Shown piece by piece: positions 2,661-57,379 of a stretch of DNA of 64,000 nucleotides. The notes under the pieces are model-generated. The model was not told the DNA's origin. It saw only the letters and a program-made list of their open reading frames with translations, and did no database searches. The stretch covers positions 5,425 through 69,424 of the forward strand of contig JBHGAY010000004.1 of NCBI GenBank assembly GCA_041946735.1, given 5' to 3'. The first letter of the stretch is position 1, and each line of letters begins with the position of its first letter. The DNA is from Candidatus Eiseniibacteriota bacterium (lineage in GTDB: Bacteria; Eisenbacteria; RBG-16-71-46; CAIMUX01; VGJL01). Position numbers and translations under genes: made by a program.

Positions 2661-2727
2661 CGGCCGGGCGGCGATCCCCGGCCGGCAAGAGGCACAAGGG
2701 CCTGAAACTACTGGAGCAGGAGCAGAA

Positions 2728-5020: not shown

Positions 5021-5033
5021 TGGAGGATTCGAG

Positions 5034-18213: not shown

Positions 18214-18271
18214 CGGAAGGGAGCGACAGGCGGCCGATGGCGCGCCCGCTTCGCTCTCGGGATCGATCGAT

Positions 18272-20586: not shown

Positions 20587-20712
20587 GATCTCTCTCCCAT
20601 GCCGGGCGCAAAGGCTCGGTATCGATTTCGCGCCGCCACGGCGCCGCTGGCGCAGCCCTCTTCGTCCGCGGCGATCTCAGCGCTCCGCTAACGATCAGCG
20701 CTCCGCTGACGA

Positions 20713-21771: not shown

Positions 21772-21972
21772 CGATCCCTCCTCGCCCTCTCGGCAGCCGC
21801 TCACGGCGCTCCCGGCCGCTCTCGAGCCCGGAATCCGCCGGCGCGCACGAGGGCAGCTTCGAGCCTCGCGTGCGCCGGTATCCTACCAAGCGCATCACGA
21901 TCCCGAGAGCCGGCCGCTTCCCCGGAAGTCCCATCGTCGCTATGCTCTCGCGAGTATTGCCTTCGAGAGGAG

Positions 21973-28499: not shown

Positions 28500-29143
28500 C
28501 GTTCCGGCTCCTCCGCCGGCGCGGGCAGCCGGCCGCCGGCCGCGTCGACGACCGCGACGAGAAGCGAGAGGAGGTCGCGCAGGCATGGATAGGGACAGTC
28601 CGCGGCCTTCCCGGCCGCCAGGCCGACCCAGCTCGCGACGTGCCGCTCCAGGTACTCGGATCGAGCGCGCCGGATCTGCTCGAGACGCTCGGAATCCGTC
28701 TCCGCCGCCTCCCTCTCGCATAGATAGCCGAGGAAGTCGAGCTGGTGGCGGAGATGGTCGGAGGTCTCCTCGCTCCCCGCGGAGAGGCGCAGGCCGAACG
28801 CCGCGTAGAAGAGGATATTCTCGTGCAGGATCCGGGGGACCGGATCGCGGCGCAGATAGTGCGATTCGATCAGCGGGACGTGCGGATGCGGCGCGCCCAC
28901 CTCGAACGTCTCGATGTATTGCGTCTCGTACTCCCTCGCGGACCGGGGAAGGGGCGCGGGTCCGGACAGACCGAGCCGGGCCGCGAGATCCGTCCAGGCT
29001 CCCCACGTTTCCTTCGATCGCAGGAACTCCCATTGCTCGGCGCCTGGGGGACGGAAGAGGTCGCGGACGAATCGAAAGGCCGAAGCGAGCGCGCGAGCCT
29101 CCTCGCGATCCTGCCCGTCCGTCGCCGGCGGGATGCCGCTCAC
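28496..29143 (-). CDS. TorD/NarJ-like redox enzyme maturation chaperone (delta subunit)
   Basis: GTG 29143 overlaps the gamma stop (GTGA). The all-helical product has TorD-family features (FRFVRDLF..., ETQYIETFEVGAP, LDFLGYLCEREAAE). Its position after the alpha, beta and gamma subunits is typical. Confidence 0.6.
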   Translation of the reverse strand: MSGIPPATDGQDREEARALASAFRFVRDLFRPPGAEQWEFLRSKETWGAWTDLAARLGLSGPAPLPRSAREYETQYIETFEVGAPHPHVPLIESHYLRRDPVPRILHENILFYAAFGLRLSAGSEETSDHLRHQLDFLGYLCEREAAETDSERLEQIRRARSEYLERHVASWVGLAAGKAADCPYPCLRDLLSLLVAVVDAAGGRLPAPAEEPER

Positions 29144-29891
29144 GGGGCGCCCCCGATCTCGCGCAGCTCGTACCACACGCTGTAGAACTTCAGTCCGTCC
29201 CGCTGCTGCTTCTCGCCGTCCCAAACGGCAAAGGCGATGGGCGTCCCGGCGGCGGCCGGCGGGATCTGGAAGACGCACTCCCAACCATCGGCCGTGCGTC
29301 GGACCGATCCGGGGATCGCTTGCCCCGTGCGGGTCGTCGTCCCGCGGCCGGCCGCGATCAGCCGCTCGAAGCCGCGCGTCCCGTGCCAGTAGTAGAGGTC
29401 GACCGGATGGGCCGCGTCTCCCATCATCAGCGACGGGAAGCTGGCCGCGTCCTGCGCGTTCTGGACGTTCTGCGGGAACATCACGCAGGCGGCGTCCGCA
29501 AAACGCTCGATATCGAGCGAATGCGCCTTGTAGATCGTCGAGTCGCCGGCATCGGCGATCCTTTCCGGGGACCGCGCACGGCTGTCGGTCGGATCCGCCC
29601 ACCGCATCCGCACGAAGGTCGCTTCACCATTGGAGAGCAGCGACACCGCGGCGGCGGGACGCGCGCCATCGTCCGGGGGATCTCCGACGTAGAGCGGCGG
29701 CGTGCGATTCAGGGCGACCTGCGTCTCGATCGCCCCCCGCCAGGCCGGCTCCTCTCCGGCGACGAGGCTCGCCGTCGCGGCGATCGTGCGACCGCACGGG
29801 ATCGTCGCTTCCGCGGCGGCCCGGCCGGCGACGCCCGCCAAAAGCACGAGGAGCACGAGGAGCACGAATCCGAGAAGAATGCGCTGCCGCG

Positions 29892-29895
<4 letters not shown>
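29140..29895 (-). CDS. Gamma subunit, EB_dh-like haem-b protein of type II DMSO-reductase family enzymes, Sec-secreted
   Basis: ATG 29895 overlaps the beta stop (ATGA). Signal peptide MTRQRILLGFVLLVLLVLLAGVAGRAAAEA. Size and composition are like EbdC/SerC/DdhC/pNar gamma (conserved Met/Lys haem-ligand candidates). Confidence 0.6.
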
Positions 29896-31159
<1,264 letters not shown>

Positions 31160-31163
<4 letters not shown>

Positions 31164-34156
31164 GCCCTCCCCTGCGCGCTCGAGGACGCGTCCGCCCAGG
31201 CGGCGACGGGACCGTCATAGCGCTCGATGTCGACGCGGATGTCCCGGTTGTTGCCGGTCGGCCCCCAGTAGTTGAGGGCGAAGTTCAAGTGCCCGTACCC
31301 GCCGATCAGCTGCGTCGGTTTGATCTTGATGTACGTGAGCGATTGCCACCCGCCGCGCTGGAAGCCGAGGTATCGCTCCCACCCGTGGTACATCGTCAGG
31401 CGGCCCGTCTTCTCGCCCGGCAGGATCTTCGCGCGAACGACCGCTTCCCCCTGCTTGTTGAAGATCCGCACCCAGTCGTTGTCAGCGATGCTGCGCGCCT
31501 TCGCGTCGTCAGGGTGGATATAGACGATCGGCATCCCGCGCTGCAGGCGAAGCATGTAGCGATTGTCGCGCCACGTGGAATGGATCGACCAGCGCCCGTG
31601 CGGCGTGTTCCAGTAGAATGGATACTCCTCGTCCTCCACGAGCGGCTTGTGCACCGCGAGCTCTTCGCCGAGTTCGAGAAACCAGTCGTGATCGATGTAG
31701 AACTGCTGCCGGCCGGTGAGCGTGCGCCACGGGCGCTTGAGCTCGACCTGGTGGGTGAACGGCGTGTAGGTCCGACCTTCTTCGATCTCGCTGTTCCACG
31801 TGTCGGGATCGATTCCGACGAAACGCTGCGGGCCGTCCTGCAGGCCGCGGTAGGTCATCCCCTTCGTCTCCTGCGCATGCTCGAGGATGAAGTTCACCGC
31901 GTCCTCGTCCGTCGCGAGCTTCCCTTCTCCGGACCATGCCTCGTGGAGGCGCGTGAAGTCTCGTGTCCACTGCAGGTCCGCGTCCTCGAACGGCGCGAGT
32001 CCCCGCGCCGCGGCGATCTCCGACATCTTGCTTGCGAGAGCGGAGAAGATGTCCCAGTCGGTACGCGATTCGTAGAGCGGGTCGAGCACCTTGGAGAACG
32101 GATGGAGGAATGAGTGGCAGTCGGTCGAGTTGATGTCGGTCTTCTCATAGTAGCTCGACGCGGGGAGGACGATGTCGCTGTAGAGCGCTGTCGTGTCCAT
32201 CCGGTAGTTGATGTCGACGATGAGGTCGAGATCCTTCCACAGGGATCGCAGGATCGCCTCGTTGCCCTTCGCCTGGTTCAGATAGTTCGCGCGCCACACG
32301 ATGAGGGATCTCGGCTTTCGCGGCAGATCGTGCATCGTCTCCGGCGTGAGGGAGGCGAGATCCTGCTTCGGCCAGAGCGGCATCCACTTCTTCCGCACCG
32401 ACTCGAGGATCCACGACTCGATCGGGCGTCCCTCGATCGGATGGGGGTCGCTCTGGCGCGAATGGAGGTAGCTCCAGAGCGTCATGTTCTGCATGCGCTG
32501 CTTCTTCGCCCCCTCGGGGAAGGCGAGCGCCTTGAAACCATGCTCCGGCCAGATCCGCTCCTGCCCGACGTAATGGTTGAAGCCGCCGCCGTTCTTGCCG
32601 ACGTTCCCTGTGAGCGCGACGATCAGGATCATCGCCCGGTTCGCGAGGTCGTTGTGGTACCAGTGGTTCGTGCCGGCGCCGTGGATGATCATCGCCGGCT
32701 TGCGGGTGAACAGGCGCGCGAACTCGACGAGATCCGCTTCGGCGATCCCGCACGCCTCGGCGGCGCGGGCAGGCTCGTAGGCCGGGTCGGACAGCATCTC
32801 CTTCACACGGGCGAAGACCGTGGTCACCTCGGCCGTCGCGCCGTCGGCCAGCCGGACGGTCCAGACTCCTTCGAGATCCGGATCGACCTGCCCCAGCTCG
32901 ATGCTTCGCGCCGTCGACCCCATGCTGCCCGGCACCTGGGCCACCCGCCCGCTCCGCGCGTCGTGCACGTAGAAGACCGCGTCCGGATCGTGCGTGAGCT
33001 TCGGCGGCTGGCTCGCAGGCGCCGTCGGATCGCTCACCTGCGATGCCGTCTTCTTCCGCTTCTCCCACGCCTCGACCTTCGGCTCGCTCCCCCGCTCGGC
33101 CGGGTCGAGATCACTCTCGCGGAGAAGCTTGCCCGTGTCGCGGCGCACGAGCAGCGGCAGGTCTGTCTGCTCCTTGATGTAGGGAATGTCGATCGCCCCG
33201 TTCTCGACGAGCCAGCGCGAGACGGCGTTGGCGAGGATCACGTCGCTCCCCGGGCGGATCCCGAGGAACAGGTCGCTATGGATCGAGCTGGAGTTGTAGT
33301 CGGGCGACACGCTCGCGATCGTGGCGCCGTTGTAGCGCGCTTCCCAGGCGAAGTGCGCGTCCGGGATGCGCGTCGCGTTGATGTTCGATCCCCAGAGGAC
33401 GATGTGCTTCGCGTGGAACCAGTCCGCGCATTCGCACGACTCCGTCTGGACCCCCCAGGTGATCGGTTCGCCGGGCGGGAGATCGCAGTACCAGTCGTAG
33501 AAGGAGCAGAAGACGCCGCCGATGTAATGCGCGAGCCGCGAGCCGGCCGAGAACGAGACCGGGGACATCGCGGGAATCACCGAGAAGAAGGTGTTCGTGT
33601 CGGGACCGTGCTGGTAGATGTTGTCGAGGAGCTTCGAAGCGATCTGCTCGAGCGCCTCGTCCCAGCTCGCCCGTCGCCACTTTCCCTCGCCCCGCTCGCC
33701 GGCCCGGATCAACGGATACTTCAGCCTCTGCGCGCCATACACGTACTCGACGAAGCAGGCTCCCTTCTGGCAGCCGCGCGGGTTGTAGTCGGGCACGTCC
33801 TGGCTGATTCGCGGATAGTCGGCCGCCTGCTCCTCGCGGAGCATGATGCCGTCCTTCACGTAGACCTTCCAGGAGCACGAGCCGGTGCAGTTGGCGGAGT
33901 GCGTGGATCGCACGACCTTGTCGTAAGTGAAGCGGCCGCGGTAGAGGTTCTCCCAGCCCCGGTACGGATAGGTCCGCAGGGGATCGACGTCGACGACCTG
34001 GAACGACTCGAGCGCGCGCGTCGGCCGGCCGAGGAAGCCGAGGATTCCGATCCCCGCGCCCGCCGCGCCGACCTTCAAGAAGCCTCGCCGGTCGATCCGC
34101 TTGCCCTCGCCCACGGGGGCCTCCTTCTTCTTCCTGTTGTCCTGTCCGTCCTTCAT
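31160..34156 (-). CDS. Alpha subunit, Tat-exported NarG-like molybdopterin oxidoreductase (type II DMSO-reductase family; pNar/Nxr-like)
   Basis: ATG 34156 overlaps the cytochrome c stop (ATGA). Twin-arginine leader KRIDRRGFLKVGAAGAGIGILG. VRSTHSANCTGSCSWKVYVKDG...YPRISQDVPDYNPRGCQKGACFVEYVYGAQRLKYP is near-identical in pattern to the NarG FS0-binding region. The product is about 998 aa. Confidence 0.85.
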
Positions 34157-35742
34157 TGCGCGGCCGCCTGTGTCGTCGTCGCTGTCGCCTCCGCGGTCGC
34201 CTCCGCCTTCGCGGTCGCCGGCGCTCCGCCTGCAGCAATCCCGAGCGTCCGGACATAGGAAACGACGTCGCGGATGTCCGCCGGTGAGAGCGCGCCGCGT
34301 GCCCCCCATGCCGGCATCGCGGTGTTCCGCCTGCCCTGGGTGATCGTCTCGATGAGGAAGGCGTCGCTCGCGTACGCCTGGAACGCCGGGGAATCGAGCG
34401 TCGGCGCGACGCCGCCCCGCCCGGCCGGGCCATGGCAACCGGCGCAGTTCTTCACGAAGAGAGACCGCCCGCGTCCCGGATCTCCGATCGGCCCCGCTGT
34501 CGCTTTCATCGGAATCTCCGAGCCGCCTGCCTCGCTGGCGGCCGGGCGGATCTCCTCGCCCGCCACCTCGCGACCGAGCACGAACGAGACGATCTGGCGG
34601 ATGTCCTCCTCCGACATCCCCCCGGCCGCGAGACCCCAAGCCGGCATGATCGTTCCCCGGCGCCCGCTGCGGATCATCGCCGCGACGTACGCCGGGCTCG
34701 CCGCCGCCTTGAACGATTCCGCGCGTACGGCCGGGATGAACGAGCGGAAGAACTTGTCGTAGCGCCCCAGCTCCCCCGTGTCGTGGCACGTGGAGCAGAA
34801 ACGGTTGTACAGATCGGCGCCGGTCATCGGCGCTGGATTTGCGGACGCATAGATCATGAGATGCTTCTCGGGAGTCAGATACGAACCGGGCAGGTCGCGC
34901 TGCTGCTGCGCGAGGAGGAAGGTAGTCAACGCCTCGGTCTCGCCCCGCGACAGCCCGGGACACGGCATCTGGCTCCCGGCGACAACCGCCTGCGGGTCGG
35001 CGAAGTGTTCGATCAACCACTCCGGGACGGTGTGCGGTCCCTGGATGCCGGCCATCGGGAGATTCCCGCGGACCTTCAGCCCCTCGTTGTCGAGAGCCGG
35101 CCCCAGGCTTCCTCCGCGCCCGCCGAGCTTGTGGCAGGACCTGCAGCCCTTCGCCTCGAAGAGGGCCGCGCCGGCCGCGTACGTCTCTCCTCCGTTCTCA
35201 GCCACTTCGCGCGCTGCGTGGCAGACGCCGCACGACGACTGCGTCAGCTCGAGCGGCAGGAGGGGATAGTCCCAGTGTCGGTCCTCCGCCTTCGCGTCCT
35301 CGAAGGACATCGCGCGTCCCTGCCCGCGATGGCAGATCGTGCAGCCGAACCGGTTCGGATCGTGCCACTGGAGATAGGCCCCCGGATGGACCCGGTGGGG
35401 ATTCGCCACGTCGGTCATCCGCGGATCGTCGACCCCGTTGTGGCAGGAGACGCATCGGTCGATCGTCCCGATCTCCGGCAGGACGACCTGGCGCATTTCC
35501 ACATGGAAGTCGTTCGCGATCTTCCGTCCCCGGTCATCGGTCGCCTTCGCGCTCAGAATGCGCTGGTACTCCCGCTGGTAATGCCTCCAGGGATTCCACA
35601 CGTTCTCGCGGAGCGCGGCAGCGCCGAGCAAGGCGATCGTCAGGACGCTCATCGAGAGCAGCGCGAGCTTCACACGCCGGTCCCGCCGCTCCGCCTCCCG
35701 GCGCGTCGCCTGCGAGATCCGGGAGCCGTCCTTCTCGTTCAT
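34153..35742 (-). CDS. Membrane-anchored hexahaem c-type cytochrome
   Basis: ATG 35742. An N-terminal TM helix, then six CxxCH motifs: CVSCH, CTICH, CGVCH, CRSCH, CSTCH, CAGCH. Confidence 0.8.
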   Translation of the reverse strand: MNEKDGSRISQATRREAERRDRRVKLALLSMSVLTIALLGAAALRENVWNPWRHYQREYQRILSAKATDDRGRKIANDFHVEMRQVVLPEIGTIDRCVSCHNGVDDPRMTDVANPHRVHPGAYLQWHDPNRFGCTICHRGQGRAMSFEDAKAEDRHWDYPLLPLELTQSSCGVCHAAREVAENGGETYAAGAALFEAKGCRSCHKLGGRGGSLGPALDNEGLKVRGNLPMAGIQGPHTVPEWLIEHFADPQAVVAGSQMPCPGLSRGETEALTTFLLAQQQRDLPGSYLTPEKHLMIYASANPAPMTGADLYNRFCSTCHDTGELGRYDKFFRSFIPAVRAESFKAAASPAYVAAMIRSGRRGTIMPAWGLAAGGMSEEDIRQIVSFVLGREVAGEEIRPAASEAGGSEIPMKATAGPIGDPGRGRSLFVKNCAGCHGPAGRGGVAPTLDSPAFQAYASDAFLIETITQGRRNTAMPAWGARGALSPADIRDVVSYVRTLGIAAGGAPATAKAEATAEATATTTQAAAQ

Positions 35743-35776
35743 CCTCGATCCCCCTCGCGCCGGCGCAGCCTCGGCA

Positions 35777-37405
35777 TCAGTGAACCGGCCATGACGACTT
35801 GCTCCAATAGAAGCCCCAGTTGGGACCGCGCAGCTCCGATCCCACGAAAGTCAGGACGACGAAGCCGACAAGGAAGCAGAGGAACAGCGCGATCGCCGCC
35901 GCGCGCGTCGATCCGGTGCGGTGCAGGATCGCGAGGGACCATCCGGCGTAGAGGGCGGTGAGGATCGTCCCGGGATTGAGCGCGATGATCACGATCTGCG
36001 GAATCGACGGGAACCAGGTGCGCAGCCATCCGAACCGCACGGGGATCGCGACGGCGAGCACGGCGGCGACGAGCGCGAAGAGCGCGCTCTGCGCGGCGAT
36101 GCGCCTGCCCCGCGGCCCGCTCAGCACGACGCCCGCCTGCTCGCGCTCCCGGTCGAGGAACGGAATCAGCCCGAGCCCCAGGATCGCGATCGCCGGAATC
36201 ACCATCCCGCCGACGAAGGCCGAGTAGGAAACCATCTCCTGGAGCCCGAGGAAATACCAGGGAGCCTTCGCCGGATTCTCCGGAACGGCGGGATTCGCGA
36301 GCTCCTTCAGCGGCGCGTTCCAGAACAAGCCGAGGACGAGACAGGCGGCTGCGCAGGCCATGAGGACGAAGAGCTCCGCGCGCAGCACGTACGGCCACGC
36401 CGGAATCGTGTCCGCGGGATCGACGTTTACCGCGGGAGTGCGGTCACGCACGATGCACATGAGGCCGTAGGTCTTTCGCGGCGCCTCGCTCGGCGCCGCG
36501 GGCACGCTCCCCGGAATCGCCGAGCCCTTGCCCGCCGCCGTCGGCGGCCCGTCGGGACGGCCCAGCCCCCCGTCCTTGCGGATTCGCCAGAAGTGGATCC
36601 CCGCCACCATCGCGAGGGCGAGCGGCAGCACCATGACATGGAGCAGGTAGAAGCGGATCAGCGCCTCTTGCCCGACCGCGTTGGCGCCCAACAGCAATCG
36701 TTTCTGGAACCCGCCCGGATCGAAGAAGCCGGTGATCCCGATCGCGTCGGTCAGTTCGCGGGGGGAACCGGCGATGTTCGCGCCGATCGTGATAGCCCAG
36801 TAGGCGAGCTGGTCCCAGGGGAGAAGGTACCCGGTGAAGGAGAGTCCGAGCGTCAGCACGAAGAGCACCATGCCGACGAGCCAGTTGAACTCGCGCGGCT
36901 TCTTGTAGCTCGCCGTGAAGAACACCCGAACCATGTGCACGAGGACGGTCACGACCATCAGGTGCGCCGCCCAGCGGTGGATGTTGCGGATGAAGCGGCC
37001 GGTCGGCACGACGTAATGGATGTCCTTGATGCTGTCGTACGCCTGGTCGATCGAAGGCTTGTAGTACACCATCAACAGGATCCCGGTCGCGACGAGGATG
37101 AGGAAGAACGAGAGCGAGGCCATCCCCATCGCCCATGTGGTCGAGAAGCGCAGCGTGCGAACATTGACGCGCGTGGAATGAAGGTGGAGGAAGAGGTTCG
37201 AGAAGATCGTCTGCGACCGCGTCCGGTCCGTCTCGGGACGCCCGTGACGGAAGAAGGAGTCCCGCAGGTTTTCGGGAAGGCGGCGCAGGTTCTCCACGAA
37301 CGGCCCGAACCCGCCGTCATGCTCGCGCTCGCCGTCGCGGCCGCGTTCGCCGTCACGCTGGCGGTCGCGGTCACGCTCGCGGCCGCGCGACTCGATCGTC
37401 GCCAT
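35777..37405 (-). CDS. Cytochrome b (fused b6 + subunit IV type) of a bc-like quinol oxidising complex
   Basis: ATG 37405 with GAGGAGGAG RBS. HRWAAHLMVVTVLVHMVRVFFTASYKKPREFNWLVGMVLFVLTLGLSFTGYLLPWDQLAYW carries the haem-ligand His pairs of cytochrome b. A C-terminal SUIV-like half is fused. The N-terminal extension is RD/RE-rich. Confidence 0.85.
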   Translation of the reverse strand: MATIESRGRERDRDRQRDGERGRDGEREHDGGFGPFVENLRRLPENLRDSFFRHGRPETDRTRSQTIFSNLFLHLHSTRVNVRTLRFSTTWAMGMASLSFFLILVATGILLMVYYKPSIDQAYDSIKDIHYVVPTGRFIRNIHRWAAHLMVVTVLVHMVRVFFTASYKKPREFNWLVGMVLFVLTLGLSFTGYLLPWDQLAYWAITIGANIAGSPRELTDAIGITGFFDPGGFQKRLLLGANAVGQEALIRFYLLHVMVLPLALAMVAGIHFWRIRKDGGLGRPDGPPTAAGKGSAIPGSVPAAPSEAPRKTYGLMCIVRDRTPAVNVDPADTIPAWPYVLRAELFVLMACAAACLVLGLFWNAPLKELANPAVPENPAKAPWYFLGLQEMVSYSAFVGGMVIPAIAILGLGLIPFLDREREQAGVVLSGPRGRRIAAQSALFALVAAVLAVAIPVRFGWLRTWFPSIPQIVIIALNPGTILTALYAGWSLAILHRTGSTRAAAIALFLCFLVGFVVLTFVGSELRGPNWGFYWSKSSWPVH

Positions 37406-37421
37406 GATCTCTCCTCCTCGC

Positions 37422-37889
37422 CTACGCCTTGTAGAAGGTCATCGGAGGGACTTCCCGCTCCGCGTCGACCAACAGAGACCCGTCCGCCGCCTGCGACACT
37501 TCCAGCCAGCGCAGCGGGCGCGGCGCCGGGCCGCGCCGCAGCTCGCCGTCCGGCCCGAAGCGCGACCCATGGCAGGGGCAGGCGAATCCATCCTCCGATT
37601 CGCCTACGATGCATCCGAGATGCGTGCAGACGAGCGACAGCGCCGCGATGCCCCGCGCGTCGGAGATCAGCCGGACGTTGCGCTCGGGAACGACACGCGC
37701 CGTGCCGGCGGGGAACTCCTCCGGCCTGCCGACACGGAAGCGGCTTCCCGCCTCCGGCAGCACGCTCGGCTTCGGGAGCCGGGCCATCCCGATCACAGCG
37801 CCAAAGATGGCGAGCGCGGCGCTCCAGGAGCCGGCAAGGCCGAGGAAGTCGCGGCGAGGGATCGGTTCGGGTTCTAGGCGATGCGACAT
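37422..37889 (-). CDS. Rieske [2Fe-2S] protein
   Basis: ATG 37889 with AGGAG upstream. RRDFLGLAGSW Tat-like anchor. CTHLGC ... CPCHGS Rieske boxes. Confidence 0.8.
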   Translation of the reverse strand: MSHRLEPEPIPRRDFLGLAGSWSAALAIFGAVIGMARLPKPSVLPEAGSRFRVGRPEEFPAGTARVVPERNVRLISDARGIAALSLVCTHLGCIVGESEDGFACPCHGSRFGPDGELRRGPAPRPLRWLEVSQAADGSLLVDAEREVPPMTFYKA

Positions 37890-39859
37890 TTCGGGTTCTC
37901 CTGGAAATGGAACCGCTCCATCGTGATCGCTCCGGTCGGACAGCGCTCCGCGCACAGCCCGCATCGGATGCAGATCGTCTCGTCCTTGAGGATCGCGGAG
38001 GCCCGGTCCGGTTCCGTCCCGTCGAGCTGAGCCTCGAGGACGGGCGCGAGCGAGACCTCGCCGGTCAGGCGGTCGACGGAGACGATCCTCAGGCAGAGCT
38101 CCGGACAGACGTCGACGCAGCCCCCGCACAGGATGCACTTGTCGCCGTCGAAGATCGTGTTGACGCCGCAGTCGAGGCAGCGCGATGCCTCGCGGCGCGC
38201 CTGCTCGGCCGAGTACCCGATCTCCACCGGAGCCGCCTGCGAGCGGAGCCTCTCTGCAACCGGGGCGGCCGGTAGCGCGACACGGCGGATCGCTTCGTAC
38301 CCCGGCTCGCGCGCGTAGTCGGGAATCCCCAAGTGCAGCTCGAGCGCCTCTGCTCCGATCGCCCGGCCGGTCGCCGCCTCGTAGATCGCCCGCGCGACGG
38401 CCTTCCCCGACGCGACGGCGTGGATCAGTAGTTTCGGGCCGTAGGCCAGATCTCCGGCCACGAAAACGTCCGGCGCGTTCGTTCGCCCCGTCACCGGATC
38501 GCAGGCGAGAAATCCGCGCGGGGATAGCTCCAGCCCGTCTCGCTGCGGATCGACGAAGCCGACGTCGATCCCCTGCCCGATGCTCGTCAGGACCGTGTCG
38601 CACTCGATCGTTTCGGTCTGCGTCTCGTCGAATACCGGAGCGAAGCGTCGATTCTCGTCGAAGACCCGCAGGCACTTCTTGAACACCACGCCGCGCAGGC
38701 GCCCGGAGGCGTCCTTGAGGATCTCGGATGGGCCCAGCCCGTTGCGGCGCACGATCCCCTCCTCGTCCCCCTCGAGGATCTCGACGTCGTCGGCCGGCAT
38801 TTCCTCGAGAGACTCGAGGGAGCAGAGCCAGACCTTGCCGGGCGCGCGGCCGCCGGGACCCGCCGCTTCCATCTCGCGCTCGATCTCGCGCAGCGCGGTG
38901 CGCGCTGCGTCACTCGCGATCTGGCGAAGGACGGTGCGGCCCACGTCGTAGGCGACGTTCCCTCCACCGATCACGACGACCCGGTTGCCGATCGCGGGCG
39001 GACGGCCGAGGGAAACGTCACGCAGGAACTCCACGCCTCCGAGGACGCCGGCGGCGTCGGCGCCCGGGATCGGGAGCGCGCGGGATCGCTTCGCTCCCAC
39101 CGCGATCACGACCGCGTCGTGGCGCGCGCGCAACTCCGCGAAGGTGAGATCCCGGCCGACCTGGCAGTTCGTGACCGCCTTGACACCCATCTCCAGAATC
39201 ACCTCGACCTCGGCGCGGATCAGATCGCGCGGGAGTCGATACTCCGGCACGCCGACCGCAAGCATCCCGGCGAGGACCGGCTCCATCTCGTAGATCGTGA
39301 CCGCGAAGCCGAGCAGCGCCAGATCGTGCGCCGCTGCGAGGCCGGCCGGACCGCTGCCGATGATGCCGGCGGAGCGGCCGGAGACCGGAGGAACGTCTCC
39401 GGAAAGGAGGGACTGCAGAAGGGGGAGGATCTCGTCGACGTCCCGGCAGGGCTGCGGCGCATGGCGACGGGCGGCCTCTTTCAGGAGCTCGATCAACGAA
39501 CGGCCGGTGTGGGGCGTCGATGCGGGCACCGCCTCGACGCCGTACTTCTCGCAGACGAAACGTTTGAGGGCGCGGATGGCGATCGGCCGGTCCAGTTCGC
39601 CGCGGCGGCACGCAACCTCGCACGGCGCGCCGCAGATCCGCCCACAGATGGAGGCGAGAGGGTTCGGCCCTCGGGCGATCAGGTAGGCCAGCTCGTCGTC
39701 CCCGGCCGCAATGGCGCGCACGTAGCCGCGGGCGTCGGTGTGCACGGGGCAGGCCGCCTGGCATTTGATCTGCTCCTTCCAATAGGAGAGATCCGGCACG
39801 CGGACCTCGGCGCCGTTCGAGGAGTCGATCGGCTCCCAGCCGTTGCCGTCGCGGCTCAC
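37874..39859 (-). CDS. GltD-like NAD(P)H-dependent FAD oxidoreductase with N-terminal and C-terminal 4Fe-4S ferredoxin domains
   Basis: GTG 39859 overlaps the Rrf2 stop (GTGA). The N-terminus CQAACPVHTDARGY...CGRICGAPCEVAC is as in glutamate synthase small subunit-like proteins. AGIIGSGPAGLAAA (FAD) and VVVIGGGNVAYD (NAD(P)) are present. The C-terminal CILCGGCVDVCP and CIRCGLCAERCP. Confidence 0.75.
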   Translation of the reverse strand: MSRDGNGWEPIDSSNGAEVRVPDLSYWKEQIKCQAACPVHTDARGYVRAIAAGDDELAYLIARGPNPLASICGRICGAPCEVACRRGELDRPIAIRALKRFVCEKYGVEAVPASTPHTGRSLIELLKEAARRHAPQPCRDVDEILPLLQSLLSGDVPPVSGRSAGIIGSGPAGLAAAHDLALLGFAVTIYEMEPVLAGMLAVGVPEYRLPRDLIRAEVEVILEMGVKAVTNCQVGRDLTFAELRARHDAVVIAVGAKRSRALPIPGADAAGVLGGVEFLRDVSLGRPPAIGNRVVVIGGGNVAYDVGRTVLRQIASDAARTALREIEREMEAAGPGGRAPGKVWLCSLESLEEMPADDVEILEGDEEGIVRRNGLGPSEILKDASGRLRGVVFKKCLRVFDENRRFAPVFDETQTETIECDTVLTSIGQGIDVGFVDPQRDGLELSPRGFLACDPVTGRTNAPDVFVAGDLAYGPKLLIHAVASGKAVARAIYEAATGRAIGAEALELHLGIPDYAREPGYEAIRRVALPAAPVAERLRSQAAPVEIGYSAEQARREASRCLDCGVNTIFDGDKCILCGGCVDVCPELCLRIVSVDRLTGEVSLAPVLEAQLDGTEPDRASAILKDETICIRCGLCAERCPTGAITMERFHFQENPKCRIA

Positions 39860-40350
39860 CGCGTCCGCCGTCCCGCCGCGGCCACCTTGCCGCGCGCCTG
39901 CTGCGCCACTTTGCCGCCGGGCGCCTGCTCCGCCGCCTTGGCGCCGCGCGCCTGCGCGACCGCCTCGCCGAGCGTGCGCTTCCGGAGGGAATCGACCAGC
40001 GCGTCTCTCAGCTCGCTCCATTCCCAGTGAAGGATGCAGGCGCTCGTGTCGGAGCAGCGCGATTGCCCGAGCAGGCAGACCCGCTTCGTCCCGAACGTGT
40101 CGAATGCCTGGACGATCTGCAGCAGCGAAATGCGGCCGGCGGAGCGAGCGAGGCGAAAGCCTCCCGTCTTCCCCCGCTGGCTTTCCAGGATCCCTGCGGA
40201 GGCGAGCACGCGAAGGATCTTCGCCAGATATTGCGGAGGAAGATCGACGACGCGAGCGATCTCGCGGTTGAGGAACCAGTCTCTCTCCTCGCTCTCGGCC
40301 GCCATGTACGCGAGGGCGCGGATGGCGTATTGGGCGCTCGTGGAAATCAT
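39856..40350 (-). CDS. Rrf2-family transcriptional regulator (NsrR/IscR-like, three-Cys cluster site)
   Basis: ATG 40350. MISTSAQYAIRALAYMA... is a winged-helix N-terminus. CLLGQSRCSDTSAC has C-x6-C-x5-C spacing, as in Fe-S-binding Rrf2 regulators. Confidence 0.75.
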   Translation of the reverse strand: MISTSAQYAIRALAYMAAESEERDWFLNREIARVVDLPPQYLAKILRVLASAGILESQRGKTGGFRLARSAGRISLLQIVQAFDTFGTKRVCLLGQSRCSDTSACILHWEWSELRDALVDSLRKRTLGEAVAQARGAKAAEQAPGGKVAQQARGKVAAAGRRTR

Positions 40351-40429
40351 GAAGGGGATATTAGGACCCGTTAGTCCGAAATGCAAGAGGAGATCGAGTC
40401 GGACCCGGGGGCCCGGCGCCGATGCTCCC

Positions 40430-41062
40430 TCAAACAGTCTCGGTCAGATCTTCCCGGCGGTTCACGTTGCGGAGGGCGCTCGCGACCCGGATTCTCCCGA
40501 CGAAAGCGGCGGAGAGAAGGGTCGCGCCCACGCTCTCGATCACCCGGTGCATGGACGTTCCTTCGGGTGCCGAGGAGAACGCCCGTAGGACGGATCGGTG
40601 GTACAGGCCGGGGAACGGATGCAGTCGCCCGCCGGGCTCCCCATAGCAGACGACCGGCTCCGTCCGTCCTGCGGCTGGCCCGGTGCCACCGGCCCGGATC
40701 GACGCGAGAAGTGGGCGGAGCACTGCAGAGGTCACTCCGGGCATGTCGACGGCGAGGATGAGCGCCCAGTCGGACGATTCGCTTGCAGCATGGGTGAGCG
40801 CGACCCTCACCCCCTCCACGGGACCGAGGCCGGGACGCTCACCCGTCAGGACAGGGGCGCGATACCGCCGGAAAGGCGCCGGATCGGGAGCGACGATCCG
40901 CGGATGGATGTTCAACTCCCGCATCGCCCGAAGCGCGAGCGCGAGGAGACTCCTCCCCCGGTGCGTCGCCAGGGCCTTGTTCGATCCGAACCGCCGCGAC
41001 GCGCCACCGGCGAGAACGAAGCCGGAGACGCGCTCGTTCCCCTTCGTCCCGGCCCTCCTCAA
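40430..41062 (-). CDS. mobA: Molybdenum cofactor guanylyltransferase MobA
   Basis: ATG 41062 overlaps the PNGase stop (ATGA). GFVLAGGASRRFGSNKAL is the MobA signature. It is about 210 aa. Confidence 0.8.
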   Translation of the reverse strand: MRRAGTKGNERVSGFVLAGGASRRFGSNKALATHRGRSLLALALRAMRELNIHPRIVAPDPAPFRRYRAPVLTGERPGLGPVEGVRVALTHAASESSDWALILAVDMPGVTSAVLRPLLASIRAGGTGPAAGRTEPVVCYGEPGGRLHPFPGLYHRSVLRAFSSAPEGTSMHRVIESVGATLLSAAFVGRIRVASALRNVNRREDLTETV

Positions 41063-42444
41063 TGGAGGAACAACAGCTTCCCGCGGCCCGCCCCGTCGGT
41101 TCCGCGCACCTCGTAGAAGTACGCCCCGGCCGGAACGGCCCGGCCCGCGTCGTCCTTGCCGTCCCAGCGCACGCGATGCGATCCCGCCGCGTCATGCGAA
41201 CGTTCGATGCTGCGCACCTGACGCCCCGACGCGTCGTGGATCGTGATCGACACCACTCCGGCGTCCACCGCTCGATAGCGGATCCACGTGGCGCTGCGGA
41301 ACGGGTTCGGCGAGGCGAAAGAGAGCAGAAGCCCGCCCCCTCCCTCCGCGCTCTCGATCCCGGCCGGGGCAAGCTGCCGGTAGAGGATGAGCTGGGTCTG
41401 CAGTGACCAAATCGGCTCGGTGTGCCCCGTGTAGTTGTAGTTGCAGTCTGTGCAGGTCTGTCCCGACACGCAGTTGGGATTGTCGGGGCGGCAGTAGTTC
41501 TCGTACGGCATGATGCCGTAGTCGAGCACGGCGGTCTCCCCCGGAGTCACCGACTCGGTGATGTCGGCGTCCCACGGGTCGACCTTGTCGCCCGGACACC
41601 ACCCGGCGCGGTCGTACTGCCACGTCCCCCCCTGCGGGCTGCACAGGTTGCTCTCGCAGTCGGAGCGCCAGACATTGTGCCAGATCGAGTCGGCGTTCGC
41701 CTTGATCCAGTGGCGGCGATTGCAGAATTCGGCGCAGTTCAGCGTGTTCCCCTGGCCGTGACCGGTCGCGATCGCGCGGAACTTCACCGCGTCGGTTCCC
41801 TCCGGAATCGCAACTTCCATCGGACGCAGGTGGTTCTCGTGCGGATCGTTCGGATTGCCGTAGACGAGGTAGCCGTTCGTCCACAGGTTGCGCACCTCCA
41901 CGGGAACGAGCGACGGCGTTCCTTCGACGAACGCGAAGTCGATCGTGACGAGCCAGCCGCGCGTCCCTCCGATCCAGCTCTCGATGTAATTGACGAGCGT
42001 CACCTCGTCGTGCAGGAGCATCCGGTAGTCGGTGACGTCCAGAACCCAGGTGCACGTCCCTGGCCTCGGGCCTCCGGTAATGTCGTACGGGGTGACGATG
42101 CGGGCGATCTCGATGTCTCCCCCGGGGCGCTGGACGCGAAGCCATCCGAGCCGGTCCCAAGGATCACAGTCATCGGGCGTGGGCGGACAGCCGATCTGAT
42201 AGAAGAGGAGGACCTTGTCGCAAAGGAGCTCGAGTCCGGGAAGCGTAAAGGTCCGTACGTGCGGTTCGGCCCAGTTGTAGAAGTCCTGGTCGAAGGTCCG
42301 CACCCAGGTGGTGTCGCCCGGCGCAGCGGCGGCAGCGGAGAAGACGCCGGCGAACAGCAGCAGGGCGAGAGCGCCGGTGAACACGCGCGAAGCGGACGCA
42401 CCGGCAATCTTGATCGAGAACGAGTTGCAGGAGCTGTCCCTCAT
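41059..42444 (-). CDS. Peptide-N4-(N-acetyl-beta-glucosaminyl)asparagine amidase F (PNGase F) homologue with C-terminal FlgD-Ig/T9SS-like sorting domain
   Basis: ATG 42444 with GGAGG 5 nt upstream. Signal peptide. Collinear matches to Elizabethkingia PNGase F: CDPWDR, IARIVTPY, LDVTDY, ESWIGGTRGWLVTIDFAFVEGTP, CAEFCNRRHWIKANA, GTWQYDRAGWCPG. The tail is NPFRSATWIRY...VRWDGKDDAGRAVPAGAYFYEV. Confidence 0.8.
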   Translation of the reverse strand: MRDSSCNSFSIKIAGASASRVFTGALALLLFAGVFSAAAAAPGDTTWVRTFDQDFYNWAEPHVRTFTLPGLELLCDKVLLFYQIGCPPTPDDCDPWDRLGWLRVQRPGGDIEIARIVTPYDITGGPRPGTCTWVLDVTDYRMLLHDEVTLVNYIESWIGGTRGWLVTIDFAFVEGTPSLVPVEVRNLWTNGYLVYGNPNDPHENHLRPMEVAIPEGTDAVKFRAIATGHGQGNTLNCAEFCNRRHWIKANADSIWHNVWRSDCESNLCSPQGGTWQYDRAGWCPGDKVDPWDADITESVTPGETAVLDYGIMPYENYCRPDNPNCVSGQTCTDCNYNYTGHTEPIWSLQTQLILYRQLAPAGIESAEGGGGLLLSFASPNPFRSATWIRYRAVDAGVVSITIHDASGRQVRSIERSHDAAGSHRVRWDGKDDAGRAVPAGAYFYEVRGTDGAGRGKLLFLH

Positions 42445-42772
42445 CGGACCTCCGACCCATCCGGCCGTCCGGATGGGACTGTGGATGCTGCGCCGGGTGG
42501 GCTGCGCCGGTCGCCTGCCCAAGTCCGGCGGTGGACCGCGCTTTGCGCGAGTCTCGGGCGGATCGCGACGACCATGGGATGCGGCCGAATCGACCGTGGA
42601 GAAGACTAGCCGTTCCGCCATCGAGCCCGCAATATCACGGATCTTGACGGAACACGGAACACGGCCGCAGAGCCCTCGCACCGCAACTCTCCCGGCACAG
42701 GCGCGAAGAGCCTCCGCAGACTTTCATTGGCGCGCGTAGGCCCTCGATCATCGCCAATCGCCGAAGGAAGAA

Positions 42773-45700
42773 TCAGCGGATGCGAAGGACTCTCGCAGTC
42801 GCCGACTCGGAGCCGGCCCGCAGCCGCAATAGATAAAGGCCGGAGACGACGTCTACTCCGGCCGCGTTCTTCCCATCCCAATCGATCCGATTCCGACCGG
42901 ACGGCAAAGGTCCGTTGACAAGCGTGCGGACGAGCCGGCCGCCGACGTCGAACAGCTCCAGGATCACCGGGCGGCTCCCGGCGCCGGAGGGGATCTCGAG
43001 CGAGATTGTCGTCCTCTGCGAGAACGGCGCCGGCGAGAGCGAGACGATCTGCGCCGTGCGGACTACCTGCCCTTCGTCCTCCGGCGCGCCGCCGACCCCG
43101 CAGGAAACCGGCCAGGCGCCGATCAGACCACAGTCGGGATTCGCGTCCGGGGCGCACGGGGAATCTTCGTTCAGACCGAACGGCGCCGCCGGCTCCGACT
43201 CGCCGCAGTAGCGGGGATCCTCGGAGATGTTCCCGTACTGGCCGAGAAGCTGCCCCCACGTGCCCATCCAGTCCCCCCCCGCGTTCCCCCAGAAATCGCA
43301 GCACTCGATCGTCACATCGTCGCCCGCGAACATCGACCCGCCGCTGCTCCCGGTGATGATGTTGTTGCGGAGGACCATGGGCGAGTTCTCCCAGGCCGCG
43401 ATCGCGCCACCGGAGCCGCCGGAATTGCCGTGGAAGGTGCAGTTCTCGATGAGCAGATCCTGCCACGGGTCGGTCGTGCCGATCGCGCCTCCGCCGACGG
43501 TCGCCTCGTTGTCGAGGAACGTGCAGCCTTGAATCAGGATGTTTCCCCCGCCGGAATGTATGGCGATCGCGCCGGCCGCGTTGGAGACGTTGCGGAGGAA
43601 CGTGCATCGCGTGATCTCCACGTGCATGTTCTCCCCAGCGATCGCCCCGCCGCCGTCCGCCGCCTGGTTCTTCTGGAAGACGCAATCGAAGAGCTTCACG
43701 CCGTCGGTGTTCTGGAAGAAGATGGCGCCCCCCGCGCTCATCGCCCGGTTCTCGACGAAGCGGCAATTGCGGATCGTGGGATCGCTGCCGTTCAGGCAGC
43801 GGATCGCTCCCCCGTGTTGGGACGAAGGCGAGCCATCCAGCCAGGCATGGCCACCCTGGATCGTGATCCCCTCGATAACAGAGTCGTTTCCCTCCCCCGT
43901 GATGAAGTCGAATCCCCGATGCGGATGGGCTGGGGTGCCTTCGCAGTCGATCACGCAGGTCTCCGGGTTGCCCGAGGCCGAGCGAACCGTGATCGCCTTT
44001 CCCCGGAAGGAGACGTCGCGGTTGCCGGGCCCGCGATAGATGCCATCTTCGAGCTGCACGATCTCCCCCGGGAGCGCCCCGGATACTGCGGCGTCGATGG
44101 TCGGGTAGTCGCCGCTTCCGTCCGCCCGCACGACGAGAATCGACATGCACTCCACCGTGTGCGATCCGATCTGCCAGCAGTCGCCCACGTATTGCGGAGC
44201 GCAGGGAGAGTGGCTCTCGAGGCCGAGGTCGTAGCGGGCCGCATCGCAGAAGATCGGGTCGACGGAGCGATTGCCGTTCAGCTCACCCTGCCCGGCGATG
44301 CAGCCAACCCAGTCCCCACCGTTGTGATAGAGATCCGAACATAGGAGCGTGACTGTCGCGCCTGCCGCGCAGCCGATCGCATCCCCGCCGGTGTTCCAGG
44401 CCGCGATCGTCTTCGCAATCTCGTGCTCGCCCCCCTCGAAGTGGACCGCCGAGCCGTCGGGCGCCGAGTTACCGACCAGGGTGTTGCGGGCGAGTCGAGG
44501 CTGGCACAGCAGCCCGCAGTCGAGCGCGCCGCCTTGGTAGGCCGCCTGGTTCGCCGCAATGTCGCAGTCCTCCACGGTCGGAGATGCCTCGTTCGCGCAG
44601 GCGATTCCCCCTCCTGCCCCGGCCGCGCGATTCTCGAGCAGACGGCAGCGACGGACTAGGGGCGAAGCGCCTTCGCAGAGAACCGCGCCCCCGTCACTCT
44701 CCGCGTAACCGCCGCGGATCGTGACGGCCTCGAGGACCGTCCCGCTTCCCTCCCCTTCATGTATCCAGAAGCCGCGATGCGGCTCCGGCCCGCTGCCTCG
44801 GCAATCGATCGTGCAGGCGGCCGGATCGTCCGACTCCGAGCGAATCCGGATCCGCTTGCCGCGCAGCTCGATATCGTGGTTGCCGTCCCCGGAGAACGTC
44901 CCGTCGGCGAGGAGGATCACTGCGCCGTCGGCCGCTGCGTCGATCGCGGCCTGGATCGTCGGGTGGTCTCCGGATCCATCCGGCCGGACCGTGAGGACAT
45001 CCCACTCGCACCCGCGCCCGAACGCCCCGATCCGACCGCAGACGGGACTGTTCGTCGAGTCGCACGGGGAGATCTGGGAAACGCGATAGTCGTCCGCCTC
45101 CGGGTCACAGAAGAGTGGGTCGACGTGCAGGTTGTCGTTCGTGAGTTGCCGCCCGTCCAGGGCACCGATCCAGTCCCCATCGGAGTTGCCGAAGATGTCG
45201 GTGCATTCGATTCCCAACGAGGCGAATTGAGTCCACGTGATCGCCTTCCCGGCACCATTCGAAGCAAAGATGCAGCGCTCCACGCTGCTCGGATACGACC
45301 AAAGGGCCGCGAGCGCGGAGCCATCGCCGACTGCCGCCCGGTTGCCGACGAAGGTACAGCGAGTGACATCCATGTACCCTTCCTGACGAATCAGCACGGC
45401 GCCGCCCGGCTCCAGGTCGCAACTGTTCCGCAGGAATAGACAGTCTTCGAGCGTGAGGTGAGCGCCGCCGTCCGTGAAGGCCGCGCCGCCTCCCCAACCA
45501 GCGTGGTTCTCGCGAAACACGCAGCGCCTGACCGTCGCCCGCGTGAGGTTCGACAGGTAGATGGCGCCGGCGTATTCCTTCGCCCGGTTCCCTTCGAACA
45601 GGCAGCCCTCAATGACACCCTCGTAGTAGGTGGTCGGGCCGAACCAGTAGATCGCCCCTCCGTGTTGGACAGTGGTGTTGCGGAGGAACTGACAGCGGTA

Positions 45701-46210
45701 GAGAGTCGGTGTCGTGGACTGGTCCTGGTACCACGCTGCCACGCCGTCTCCGTCGCGGAAGATGCAGTCGCGGATCGTCGGCCGGGCGCCGCCGCCGCAG
45801 AAGATTGCCGACCCGTCCCCCGTCCCGTTCGCCACGGTCACCCCCTCGAGCTTCGCCATCGGAGATTCGTGGCTGAGGAAGTGAAATCCACGATGCGCTC
45901 CTGCGCAATCGACGACGCATGCTTCGGGATGGCCCGACCTCGACCGGATCGTGATCGACTTGCCGTGGTAGTTCGCGTCCCAGTTGCCGGGGCCGGTGAA
46001 CGTTCCGTCCGCGAGCTCGAGGACATCCCCGCCGCCGCAGCCGTCGATTCCTGCCTGGATCGTCGGGAAATCCCCGGTCCCATCGGGACGGATCTGATAG
46101 ACATCGCCCATTGCGGGCGAATGGATGAGGGGGACCGACACGAAGAGGACCAGAATCGTGAAGACTGCGCGCCTCGCGGAGGAGAGCAAGGGGAGCGGGG
46201 CGGCTTGCAT
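42773..46210 (-). CDS. Secreted protein of three tandem right-handed parallel beta-helix (pectin-lyase-like) modules plus C-terminal FlgD-Ig/T9SS-like sorting domain
   Basis: ATG 46210 with AGGAGG RBS. Signal peptide. Three modules of about 330 aa each start RPDGSGD[FHY]PTI[QD]AAI and end DPLFCD../DPIFCD... with Asn/Gly-rich beta-helix rungs. The tail is APFSQRTTISLEIP...IDWDGKNAAGVDVVSGLYLLRL. Other-frame ORFs in this span are Arg-rich artefacts. Confidence 0.65.
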   Translation of the reverse strand: MQAAPLPLLSSARRAVFTILVLFVSVPLIHSPAMGDVYQIRPDGTGDFPTIQAGIDGCGGGDVLELADGTFTGPGNWDANYHGKSITIRSRSGHPEACVVDCAGAHRGFHFLSHESPMAKLEGVTVANGTGDGSAIFCGGGARPTIRDCIFRDGDGVAAWYQDQSTTPTLYRCQFLRNTTVQHGGAIYWFGPTTYYEGVIEGCLFEGNRAKEYAGAIYLSNLTRATVRRCVFRENHAGWGGGAAFTDGGAHLTLEDCLFLRNSCDLEPGGAVLIRQEGYMDVTRCTFVGNRAAVGDGSALAALWSYPSSVERCIFASNGAGKAITWTQFASLGIECTDIFGNSDGDWIGALDGRQLTNDNLHVDPLFCDPEADDYRVSQISPCDSTNSPVCGRIGAFGRGCEWDVLTVRPDGSGDHPTIQAAIDAAADGAVILLADGTFSGDGNHDIELRGKRIRIRSESDDPAACTIDCRGSGPEPHRGFWIHEGEGSGTVLEAVTIRGGYAESDGGAVLCEGASPLVRRCRLLENRAAGAGGGIACANEASPTVEDCDIAANQAAYQGGALDCGLLCQPRLARNTLVGNSAPDGSAVHFEGGEHEIAKTIAAWNTGGDAIGCAAGATVTLLCSDLYHNGGDWVGCIAGQGELNGNRSVDPIFCDAARYDLGLESHSPCAPQYVGDCWQIGSHTVECMSILVVRADGSGDYPTIDAAVSGALPGEIVQLEDGIYRGPGNRDVSFRGKAITVRSASGNPETCVIDCEGTPAHPHRGFDFITGEGNDSVIEGITIQGGHAWLDGSPSSQHGGAIRCLNGSDPTIRNCRFVENRAMSAGGAIFFQNTDGVKLFDCVFQKNQAADGGGAIAGENMHVEITRCTFLRNVSNAAGAIAIHSGGGNILIQGCTFLDNEATVGGGAIGTTDPWQDLLIENCTFHGNSGGSGGAIAAWENSPMVLRNNIITGSSGGSMFAGDDVTIECCDFWGNAGGDWMGTWGQLLGQYGNISEDPRYCGESEPAAPFGLNEDSPCAPDANPDCGLIGAWPVSCGVGGAPEDEGQVVRTAQIVSLSPAPFSQRTTISLEIPSGAGSRPVILELFDVGGRLVRTLVNGPLPSGRNRIDWDGKNAAGVDVVSGLYLLRLRAGSESATARVLRIR

Positions 46211-46454
46211 GAGTGCCTCCTGGGTGGTAGCACGAAGATCGCTTCGAAAAGGGGCGTAACTAGTATAGTGCCCAGGCGCTCTTCGAACAACGTAACGCAT
46301 GCGCCACAACTCTTGACGTTACCCATCCGCCGGCCTGCTCTTGATCGCATCGCTTCGGTGCGGTAGCTTCGCGCGTTCGCCGCGCGGCGGCGGCGTTCCT
46401 TCCAAACGCCGGAATCCAAGCTTCGAGCGCACGCAAGCGCGTAGGAGGTCAGTG

Positions 46455-55976: not shown

Positions 55977-56347
55977 GAGGGGAAAGGTAGCAAAGTCGGG
56001 TAGCGAGGCGGCCAGAGGGAAGTGGCATGCGCGTTACTTCACAAGCGGCGAGGCCGCTCTGGCGCGCCGCCTGGTGCGAAAGTGTTTTCGGTCGAGCTCG
56101 CCGGCCGGATCCTCAGGGTCCCCGGAGCACACAGCAGAGAATGGGGGCGAGCGAGCACGGCCCCGGGGCGGGGGTCGCCGTTCCTTCCCGGAGAACGATC
56201 CCTCGGGAATCGACTGTGACCCGTGTGATTCCGATCCGGGCGCATCGTCTCCGGTATGGGCAGATCCGCGCCCTGCGTACCCCGGGACGCGACGACCGGA
56301 GGGGTGTCTGTACGCTGCGCCCGGAGCCCGCCCGAAGGGAGGAGACG

Positions 56348-57088: not shown

Positions 57089-57379
57089 TCGAGTGCCGTC
57101 GGGTCTGAAAGTCGGCGAACGAACATCTCCTCCCCGGAGCCAAACACGCCGCCGCCACGAACATTCGAGGAAGCTGGCGCGTGCTCGCCGTCATTGCGGC
57201 CGGGTTCGGCTGCTTCTCGATCGAAGCAACCGCTGAATTAGCCGTTGAAGTAGCCGTCCCCGGCCGCTATCCTCTCCCGTTCGTTTCGACGCTTGCCCCC
57301 GCCCGGCGCGACGGCGGTTCCACGATCGATCCCTTTTCGTCATCCACGATATCTGGCGGCCGCCATGGAGGTTCGTGTC

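Follow-up and report, generated by a model that had tools for sequence, protein, structure and literature searches.

A predicted secreted peptide-N-glycosidase of the PNGase F family with a sorting-type C-terminal domain in Candidatus Eisenbacteria

The peptide-N-glycosidase (PNGase) F family is defined by the Pfam models PF09112 and PF09113 (clan CL0612). The closest described relative of the gene product analysed here is PNGase F of Elizabethkingia meningoseptica (structures 1PNG, 1PNF, 1PGS and 3PMS), a double jelly-roll protein for which Kuhn et al. (1995) are said to have described the roles of D60, E206, R248 and the N-acetylglucosamine (GlcNAc)-contacting E118. The Bacteroides group 1 enzymes (BF0811, 3KS7; BVU_2763, 4QHB) and the type II enzymes (PNGF-II, 4R4X; B. 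massiliensis, 7ZGN) share its superfamily and fold. The roles of these four PNGase F residues are also set out in PMC9522356, where type I PNGases, which are unable to accommodate a core fucose in alpha-1,3 linkage, are recognised by a glutamate at the E118 position, and where a periplasmic location is predicted for the Bacteroides PNGases, enzymes that lack a C-terminal sorting domain. A second point of comparison is the secretion system of type IX (T9SS), which has been described for the Fibrobacteres-Chlorobi-Bacteroidetes (FCB) superphylum and for which glycosyl hydrolases are the commonest cargo class (PMC11205867); type A cargo of the Bacteroidota T9SS (TIGR04183/PF18962) comprises secreted hydrolases with a Sec signal, a linker and a C-terminal beta-sandwich of ~80-90 amino acids. 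Here we analyse a PNGase F-family gene in a 64,000-nucleotide stretch of a Candidatus Eisenbacteria genome (contig JBHGAY010000004.1 of assembly GCA_041946735.1, positions 5,425 to 69,424), hereafter called the window, and compare its product with these systems.

The gene lies at 41059..42444 on the minus strand and encodes 461 amino acids followed by a TGA stop, an assignment supported by the open reading frame (ORF) list, matches to PF09113 and PF13860, and an identical NCBI product. An ATG at 42444 opens the gene and a TGA at 41061..41059 closes it, and the NCBI gene call on the same locus gives the same 461-residue protein from the same ATG. An identical protein is present in NCBI under GCA_030372885.1 as 'MAG: peptide-N-glycosidase F-related protein [Candidatus Eisenbacteria bacterium]', and the protein is an uncharacterised member of a known family that has already been annotated automatically as PNGase F-related. 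Its layout has four parts, in order a predicted Sec-type signal peptide, the PNGase F core with its two domains, a short linker and a C-terminal domain of ~87 amino acids of the FlgD-Ig/T9SS type. From this layout and the evidence below, we predict with a probability of roughly 0.72 that the gene product belongs to the PNGase F family and is a secreted peptide-N4-(N-acetyl-beta-glucosaminyl)asparagine amidase.

The catalytic core, made up of two jelly-roll domains, spans residues ~41-358 (41371..42324, minus strand) and was delimited using phmmer, BLASTP, an AlphaFold2 model and Foldseek. The Pfam N-glycanase_C model (PF09113) matches residues 204-300 with 78 bits, well over its cutoff of 25 (E 8e-22), and is also matched in all 40 relatives in our family alignment. 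In a phmmer search against PDB sequences, 1pnf, 1png, 1pgs and 3pms were matched at 1.4e-24, with query residues 45-316 collinear with chain residues 6-284 and thus covering both jelly-rolls; BLASTP gave 30% identity to PNGase F over 266 amino acids (E 2e-27). The AlphaFold2 model, built from the 40-sequence alignment, has a mean predicted local distance difference test score (pLDDT) of 82.3 and of ~90 in the core. When it was compared with PDB structures by Foldseek, the same four entries came first (E 1.5e-19 to 2.9e-19; template modelling score 0.74-0.76 on the target), and the next matches are N-glycanases only: the zebrafish lysosomal PNGase 9lwg, PNGF-II (4r4x) and the Bacteroides structures 3ks7, 4qhb and 7zgn.

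The Bacteroides and type II enzymes are more distant. They were matched by Foldseek at E ~1e-13 to 1e-12, whereas in sequence the group 1 enzymes were reached by phmmer at 1e-9 to 1e-8 and the type II enzymes gave no match. [quoted passage not shown] A sequence-only reading of this DNA had proposed a PNGase F homologue from collinear motifs, and the profile, sequence and structure matches, all of them significant, bear this out. CDPWDR, DVTDY, ESW...DFAFVEGTP, CAEFCNRRH and RAGWCPG are collinear with PNGase F as claimed; the motif given there as ITPY reads VTPY, and the spacing ESW..G.....DF is not literal in the actual protein. That reading had also named two outcomes that would undo its proposal, the lack of a PNGase F profile match and the loss of catalytic residues. 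When we examined both, the matches were significant and the Asp, Glu and Arg residues were retained.

We identified the counterparts of the PNGase F active-site residues by sequence alignment. W59, D60 and R61 of PNGase F correspond to W96, D97 and R98; Y85, E118 and W120 correspond to Y120, E155 and W157; and E206, R248 and W251 correspond to E239, R279 and W282. Six of these residues (W96, D97, R98, E239, R279 and W282) are conserved in 40/40 relatives, E155 is kept in 37/40 and W157 in 38/40. The catalytic Asp, Glu and Arg positions, which the sequence-only reading had wanted checked, are therefore present as D97, E239 and R279 and invariant in the family. The cysteines that form the three disulfides of PNGase F (C51-C56, C204-C208 and C231-C252) are also present. 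The core also shows differences from the Elizabethkingia enzyme. Among the chitobiose-cleft tryptophans W59, W120, W191, W207 and W251, three are retained (W96, W157 and W282), whereas W191 and W207 are replaced by H229 and F240, respectively. In addition, there are six further invariant cysteines, four of them inside an insertion of ~25 residues (~317-340) that precedes the last strand and is absent from Elizabethkingia PNGase F.

At its N-terminus, the protein carries a predicted Sec (SPI-type) signal peptide (residues 1-40, MRDSSCNSFSIKIAGASASRVFTGALALLLFAGVFSAAAA then APGDTTW; 42325..42444, minus strand). Its n-region is basic, its core is hydrophobic and an AAA motif is present, and the AlphaFold2 model places a helix at residues 16-34. 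Residues 41-48 (APGD.TTW) align with the N-terminal APAD.TVN of the recombinant PNGase F chain in 3pms; both proteins would thus combine a Sec signal with a mature N-terminus of the form AP(A/G)D. From these sequence features we infer cleavage after residue 40.

The C-terminal domain, for which there is no equivalent in Elizabethkingia PNGase F, comprises residues ~375-461 (41062..41322, minus strand) and is assigned as a FlgD-Ig/T9SS type A-like sorting domain on the basis of PF13860, a near-match to TIGR04183 and the structural model. Its sequence follows the pattern NPFR...RWDGKDDAGRAVPAGAYFYEV, and it matches the FlgD_ig model PF13860 at 1.7e-13 (50.8 bits against a cutoff of 27). In the AlphaFold2 model, a linker with pLDDT below 50 (residues 361-370) precedes seven beta-strands at 372-459 that form a beta-sandwich. 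The cargo layout of an N-terminal Sec-like signal, a linker and a strictly C-terminal beta-sandwich of ~80-90 residues is thus found in both sequence and model. The family alignment takes in relatives from Ignavibacteria and Bacteroidota whose tails score with the Por_Secre_tail model PF18962, as do 27/40 relatives overall; the columns align position for position, and P379, N380, P381, G407, G421, G440 and Y442 are invariant. In NCBI, several relatives bear the name 'T9SS type A sorting domain-containing protein'. The FlgD-Ig/T9SS-type tail proposed in the sequence-only reading is upheld by the FlgD_ig match and by this alignment with Por_Secre_tail domains. Three FlgD_ig-type tails occur within the 64 kb, on the PNGase, on a 1178-residue protein (42773..46309) and on a 907-residue protein (57293..60016), which fits a shared sorting signal.

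Taken together, these features suggest the following route for the gene product. The N-terminal signal peptide would direct the protein through Sec to the periplasm, where the double jelly-roll would fold with the three PNGase F disulfides and the clade-specific extra ones; the cysteines themselves are seen in the sequence, and their pairing is predicted. The Ig-like tail, judged by its homology, would then act as a type A T9SS-style signal for crossing of the outer membrane, followed by release or surface attachment. Outside the cell, D97 together with E239 and R279 would act on the N-glycans of glycoproteins or glycopeptides in the environment, hydrolysing the amide that links Asn to their innermost GlcNAc, and the freed glycan could serve as food. 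The presence, 27 kb away, of a GH38 alpha-mannosidase gene with a sugar ATP-binding cassette transporter is in keeping with this role. The glutamate at E155 predicts type I behaviour, that is, no room for core alpha-1,3-fucose.

Several observations weigh against this reading, and they bear on both the enzymatic activity and the export of the protein. The N-domain model PF09112 stays below threshold in the query, at 13.2 bits where 22.4 are required (E 0.076); nonetheless, the direct alignment to 1PNF spans the N-domain (chain residues 6-140), and the same model is detected in 31/40 relatives at E<=1 (best 5.6e-7). Relatives of the gene sit in unrelated, mostly housekeeping contexts. The H229 and F240 substitutions are both invariant across the 40 relatives, and because two chitobiose-cleft tryptophans are replaced, glycan specificity may differ from that of PNGase F. 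An active enzyme of the PNGase F fold whose cleft changes direct it to another substrate, such as N-glycans of bacteria or archaea, nothing but short glycopeptides, or a different glycosyl-amide, is favoured by these substitutions, by the Cys-rich insertion and by an identity of only 30% to the characterised enzyme, and PNGase F subgroups do differ in specificity by single cleft residues (PMC9522356). We consider such a substrate rather unlikely, as the catalytic and Asn-GlcNAc-contacting residues D60, R61, E118, E206, R248, W120 and W251 are all conserved and the nearest structures are all bona fide N-glycanases. That the protein is a non-catalytic carbohydrate-binding protein or adhesin that keeps the fold can be argued from the relationship of the jelly-roll domains of the PNGase F fold to carbohydrate-binding modules (PMC8812541), but the strong conservation of the full catalytic set across the clade makes this very improbable.

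With respect to export, the tail falls 0.8 bit short of the TIGR04183 T9SS type A model (22.2 bits against a cutoff of 23), and PF18962 gives no match to it at E<=1. None of the ORFs in the 64 kb, including those without annotation, encodes T9SS machinery. The secretion system is putative, and our literature search found no paper on T9SS in Eisenbacteria. A candidate PorU sortase beside the PNGase gene of one relative was not supported, as this C25 peptidase matches the PorU model through its tail only (29 bits against a cutoff of 420). The protein in question is a 1611-residue Peptidase_C25 protein with a FlgD_ig tail that, together with a NosD/beta-helix protein, adjoins the relative's PNGase gene (locus L004, 8789..13497, minus strand), and it is probably gingipain-like cargo, not a sortase. 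The outcomes with TIGR04183 and PF18962, the negative searches for T9SS components in the window and for papers on T9SS in Eisenbacteria, the standing of FlgD_ig as the best model of the tail and the predicted periplasmic location of Bacteroides PNGases (PMC9522356) would all agree with a tail that serves as an Ig module for binding or surface anchoring, in which case the enzyme would stay in the periplasm or leave by a different path, for example a type II secretion system or vesicles. We give this alternative some weight but regard it as unlikely. The domain of ~87 residues is strictly C-terminal, follows a disordered linker and ends in the pattern PNPF...GxY...K-x-hydrophobic; it aligns column for column with tails of relatives that score as Por_Secre_tail; and several large secreted proteins in the window share it, as expected of a common sorting signal. 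Our preferred reading continues to be that of an N-glycanase with a putative T9SS-type export signal. The remaining alternative concerns the gene immediately downstream, mobA, and would make the glycanase a co-regulated member of one operon with a molybdoenzyme cluster, the two serving a common physiological end. The two genes overlap by 4 nucleotides, mobA is without a usable Shine-Dalgarno sequence at normal spacing, and the genes are tightly packed on the same strand down to moaA. However, a mobA relative lies within the flanks at none of 90 loci from other genomes, five inspected relatives show five different contexts, and the glycanase would be extracellular while MobA is cytoplasmic; we regard a functional link as having next to no likelihood.

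The PNGase-mobA junction reads CAT TGA GG, and the overlap (41059..41062, minus strand) is therefore TTGA, shared between the PNGase TGA stop and a TTG start of mobA, as NCBI also calls it (locus L002); the ATGA overlap proposed in the sequence-only reading does not agree with these bases. This TTG is the only in-frame start codon 5' of the GFVLAGG nucleotide-binding motif of mobA. The start is also sound because residue 17 of the chain of the PDB MobA structure 2e8b aligns with query residue 14. As mobA has no normally spaced Shine-Dalgarno sequence of its own, termination-reinitiation is plausible, and ribosomes that end the PNGase gene probably start mobA through the overlap, which would be a by-product of where the gene landed and imply no partnership. 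The mobA-like molybdenum cofactor guanylyltransferase gene itself (40430..41062, minus strand) was assigned with PF12804 (9e-31), with the NCBIfam MobA models below their cutoffs. In a Logan metagenome assembly with 100% identical DNA (locus L001), the caller gave only the last 40 mobA codons (2655..2777, equivalent to window positions 40430..40552), apparently missing the TTG start that overlaps the PNGase stop.

As the earlier reading had stated, mobA belongs to a molybdoenzyme cluster (27462..41062, minus strand), whose genes run downstream on the same strand from mobA through genes for an Rrf2 regulator, an FAD/FeS oxidoreductase, cytochrome b, cytochrome c, a molybdopterin oxidoreductase and a 4Fe-4S protein to moaA. 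The cytochrome c is a multihaem protein with two cbb3-type domains and the molybdopterin oxidoreductase has ~1286 residues; the glycanase gene abuts the 5' edge of this cluster. In a tblastn search with MobA against 92 PNGase loci, the only matches were L001 and L002, both from the window's own genome. A conserved PNGase-mobA operon was accordingly rejected, with no mobA either at the five relatives inspected or at the 80 genome loci screened by tblastn. Since the pairing recurs at 0/90 other loci, the adjacency appears to be a local accident without functional meaning. The claim of translational coupling thus stands as far as the 4-nucleotide overlap is real and coupling is plausible, without a conserved pairing behind it, and we read no biological meaning into an apparent link with molybdenum-cofactor biosynthesis.

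Upstream of the PNGase gene, a Shine-Dalgarno sequence (GGAGG, 42449..42453, minus strand) lies 4 nucleotides 5' of the ATG. A longer ORF of 540 residues that begins at a GTG at 42681 was rejected: the extra 79 residues are rich in Arg and Pro and contain no signal peptide, and 40/40 aligned relatives and the NCBI call start at the ATG. The 5' leader also contains a perfect hairpin with a 9-bp stem and a 4-nucleotide loop (42456..42477, minus strand), which reads CCCATCCGG-ACGG-CCGGATGGG on the coding strand (42477..42456), ends two bases 5' of the Shine-Dalgarno sequence and has an RNA folding free energy of -16.9 kcal/mol. We counted 11 perfect 9-bp hairpins in the window, where first-order Markov shuffles gave an expectation of ~5; the frequency is not above chance, and folding of the whole 5' region gives z = -1.44. 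Rfam showed no match to the hairpin, whether at the gathering threshold or at E<=1; the pattern scan yielded neither a terminator nor a promoter, and no T-run follows. There is no second copy in the window and no equivalent upstream of the gene of a 56%-identical relative. On these grounds we rejected a known RNA element, a terminator and a repeat. The hairpin is thus as perfect and as close to the Shine-Dalgarno sequence as the sequence-only reading had described, and it is statistically unremarkable. As a functional element it has little backing, and stabilisation of the mRNA at its 5' end is no more than a possible role.

Relatives of the protein are numerous. A word-indexed search returned at least 889 significant proteins, and nearly all of the best 120 of these combine PF09113 with FlgD_ig or Por_Secre_tail. 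With the catalytic core alone as query, an exhaustive search among 50% cluster representatives reached 1639 at E<=1e-3 and 397 when the limit was set at E<=1e-30, and a scan of one genome per species found a relative in 277 genomes. Among 80 of the relatives' loci, the named ones are mostly from Eisenbacteria, Ignavibacteria and Gemmatimonadota; Glassbacteria, KSB1, Cloacimonetes and Holophagae contribute one locus each, and Bacteroidota a few. The GC content of the window is 68%, in agreement with the high-GC genome of the earlier reading; the PNGase gene itself has 65% against 68-70% in its neighbours, and we found no signature of horizontal transfer. The contention that the host is unlike the usual ones did not hold, as Candidatus Eisenbacteria is an FCB-group lineage in which the PNGase-plus-tail architecture is routine. 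It is also common in neighbouring phyla and is shared by hundreds of proteins from Eisenbacteria, Ignavibacteria, Gemmatimonadota and further FCB-group lineages. Our literature search found nothing on PNGase F in Eisenbacteria.

Five relatives inspected gene by gene gave five unrelated contexts, and no conserved glycan-utilisation neighbours emerged when the relatives' neighbouring ORFs were clustered. Because relatives sit in unrelated contexts, no glycan-utilisation locus backs the PNGase role. The sole recurrent neighbours are other tail-bearing proteins and purN/purH, the recurrence of which reflects lineage synteny. purN and/or purH lie within 3 kb of the PNGase homologue in 13-14 relatives' loci (L009, L078 and ~12 others) from Eisenbacteria-like and Ignavibacteria genomes, which suggests an older shared chromosomal position near purN/purH from which the copy in the window has moved away.

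These distributions indicate that N-glycanases of the PNGase F type bearing a T9SS-style tail occur widely among uncultured phyla of the FCB group, and they hint that such bacteria scavenge N-glycans from environmental glycoproteins. The clade from Eisenbacteria, Ignavibacteria and Gemmatimonadota may be marked as a subtype by its invariant His for W191, Phe for W207, Cys-rich insertion and T9SS-type tail. That it is a functionally distinct PNGase F subtype, differing in glycan specificity or stability and using a T9SS-like system for export, is a tentative proposal that we think possible but doubtful. If true, the enzyme might serve as a new deglycosylation reagent, and export by a T9SS-like system would extend to additional phyla; with two invariant cleft changes, the clade could, to a modest degree, yield new glyco-analytical enzymes. 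The residual interest of the locus is modest and lies in the His/Phe cleft substitutions, the Cys-rich insertion and the putative T9SS-type export in Eisenbacteria.

Elsewhere in the window, the 1178-residue tail-bearing protein (42773..46309, minus strand), directly upstream of the PNGase gene, is a right-handed beta-helix/PMP-repeat protein, and the 907-residue one (57293..60016, plus strand) has no confident domain other than its FlgD_ig tail. Directly upstream of the latter is an ORF at 56027..57088 (plus strand) that, like those at 4992..5738 (plus strand) and 18272..19111 (minus strand), has good coding statistics with high GC3 and no Pfam match even at E 0.05. A GatE-like ORF (20710..23967, plus strand; GatB_N with a large insertion and GatB_Yqey) is followed by a GatD-like ORF (23585..25342, plus strand; GatD_N and asparaginase domains). 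Although the genome is bacterial, the pair resembles a GatDE Glu-tRNA(Gln) amidotransferase of the archaeal type; its start codons are uncertain, as the ORFs are over-extended. Finally, 27 kb from the PNGase gene, the window encodes a GH38 alpha-mannosidase of ~1618 amino acids with CHB_HEX_C_1 and PA14 domains, whose gene adjoins genes for a sugar ATP-binding cassette transporter ATPase and a periplasmic sugar-binding protein (the group occupies 9478..14334, 15155..16798 and 16812..18623, minus strand); N-glycans set free by the PNGase could plausibly be processed further by this enzyme.

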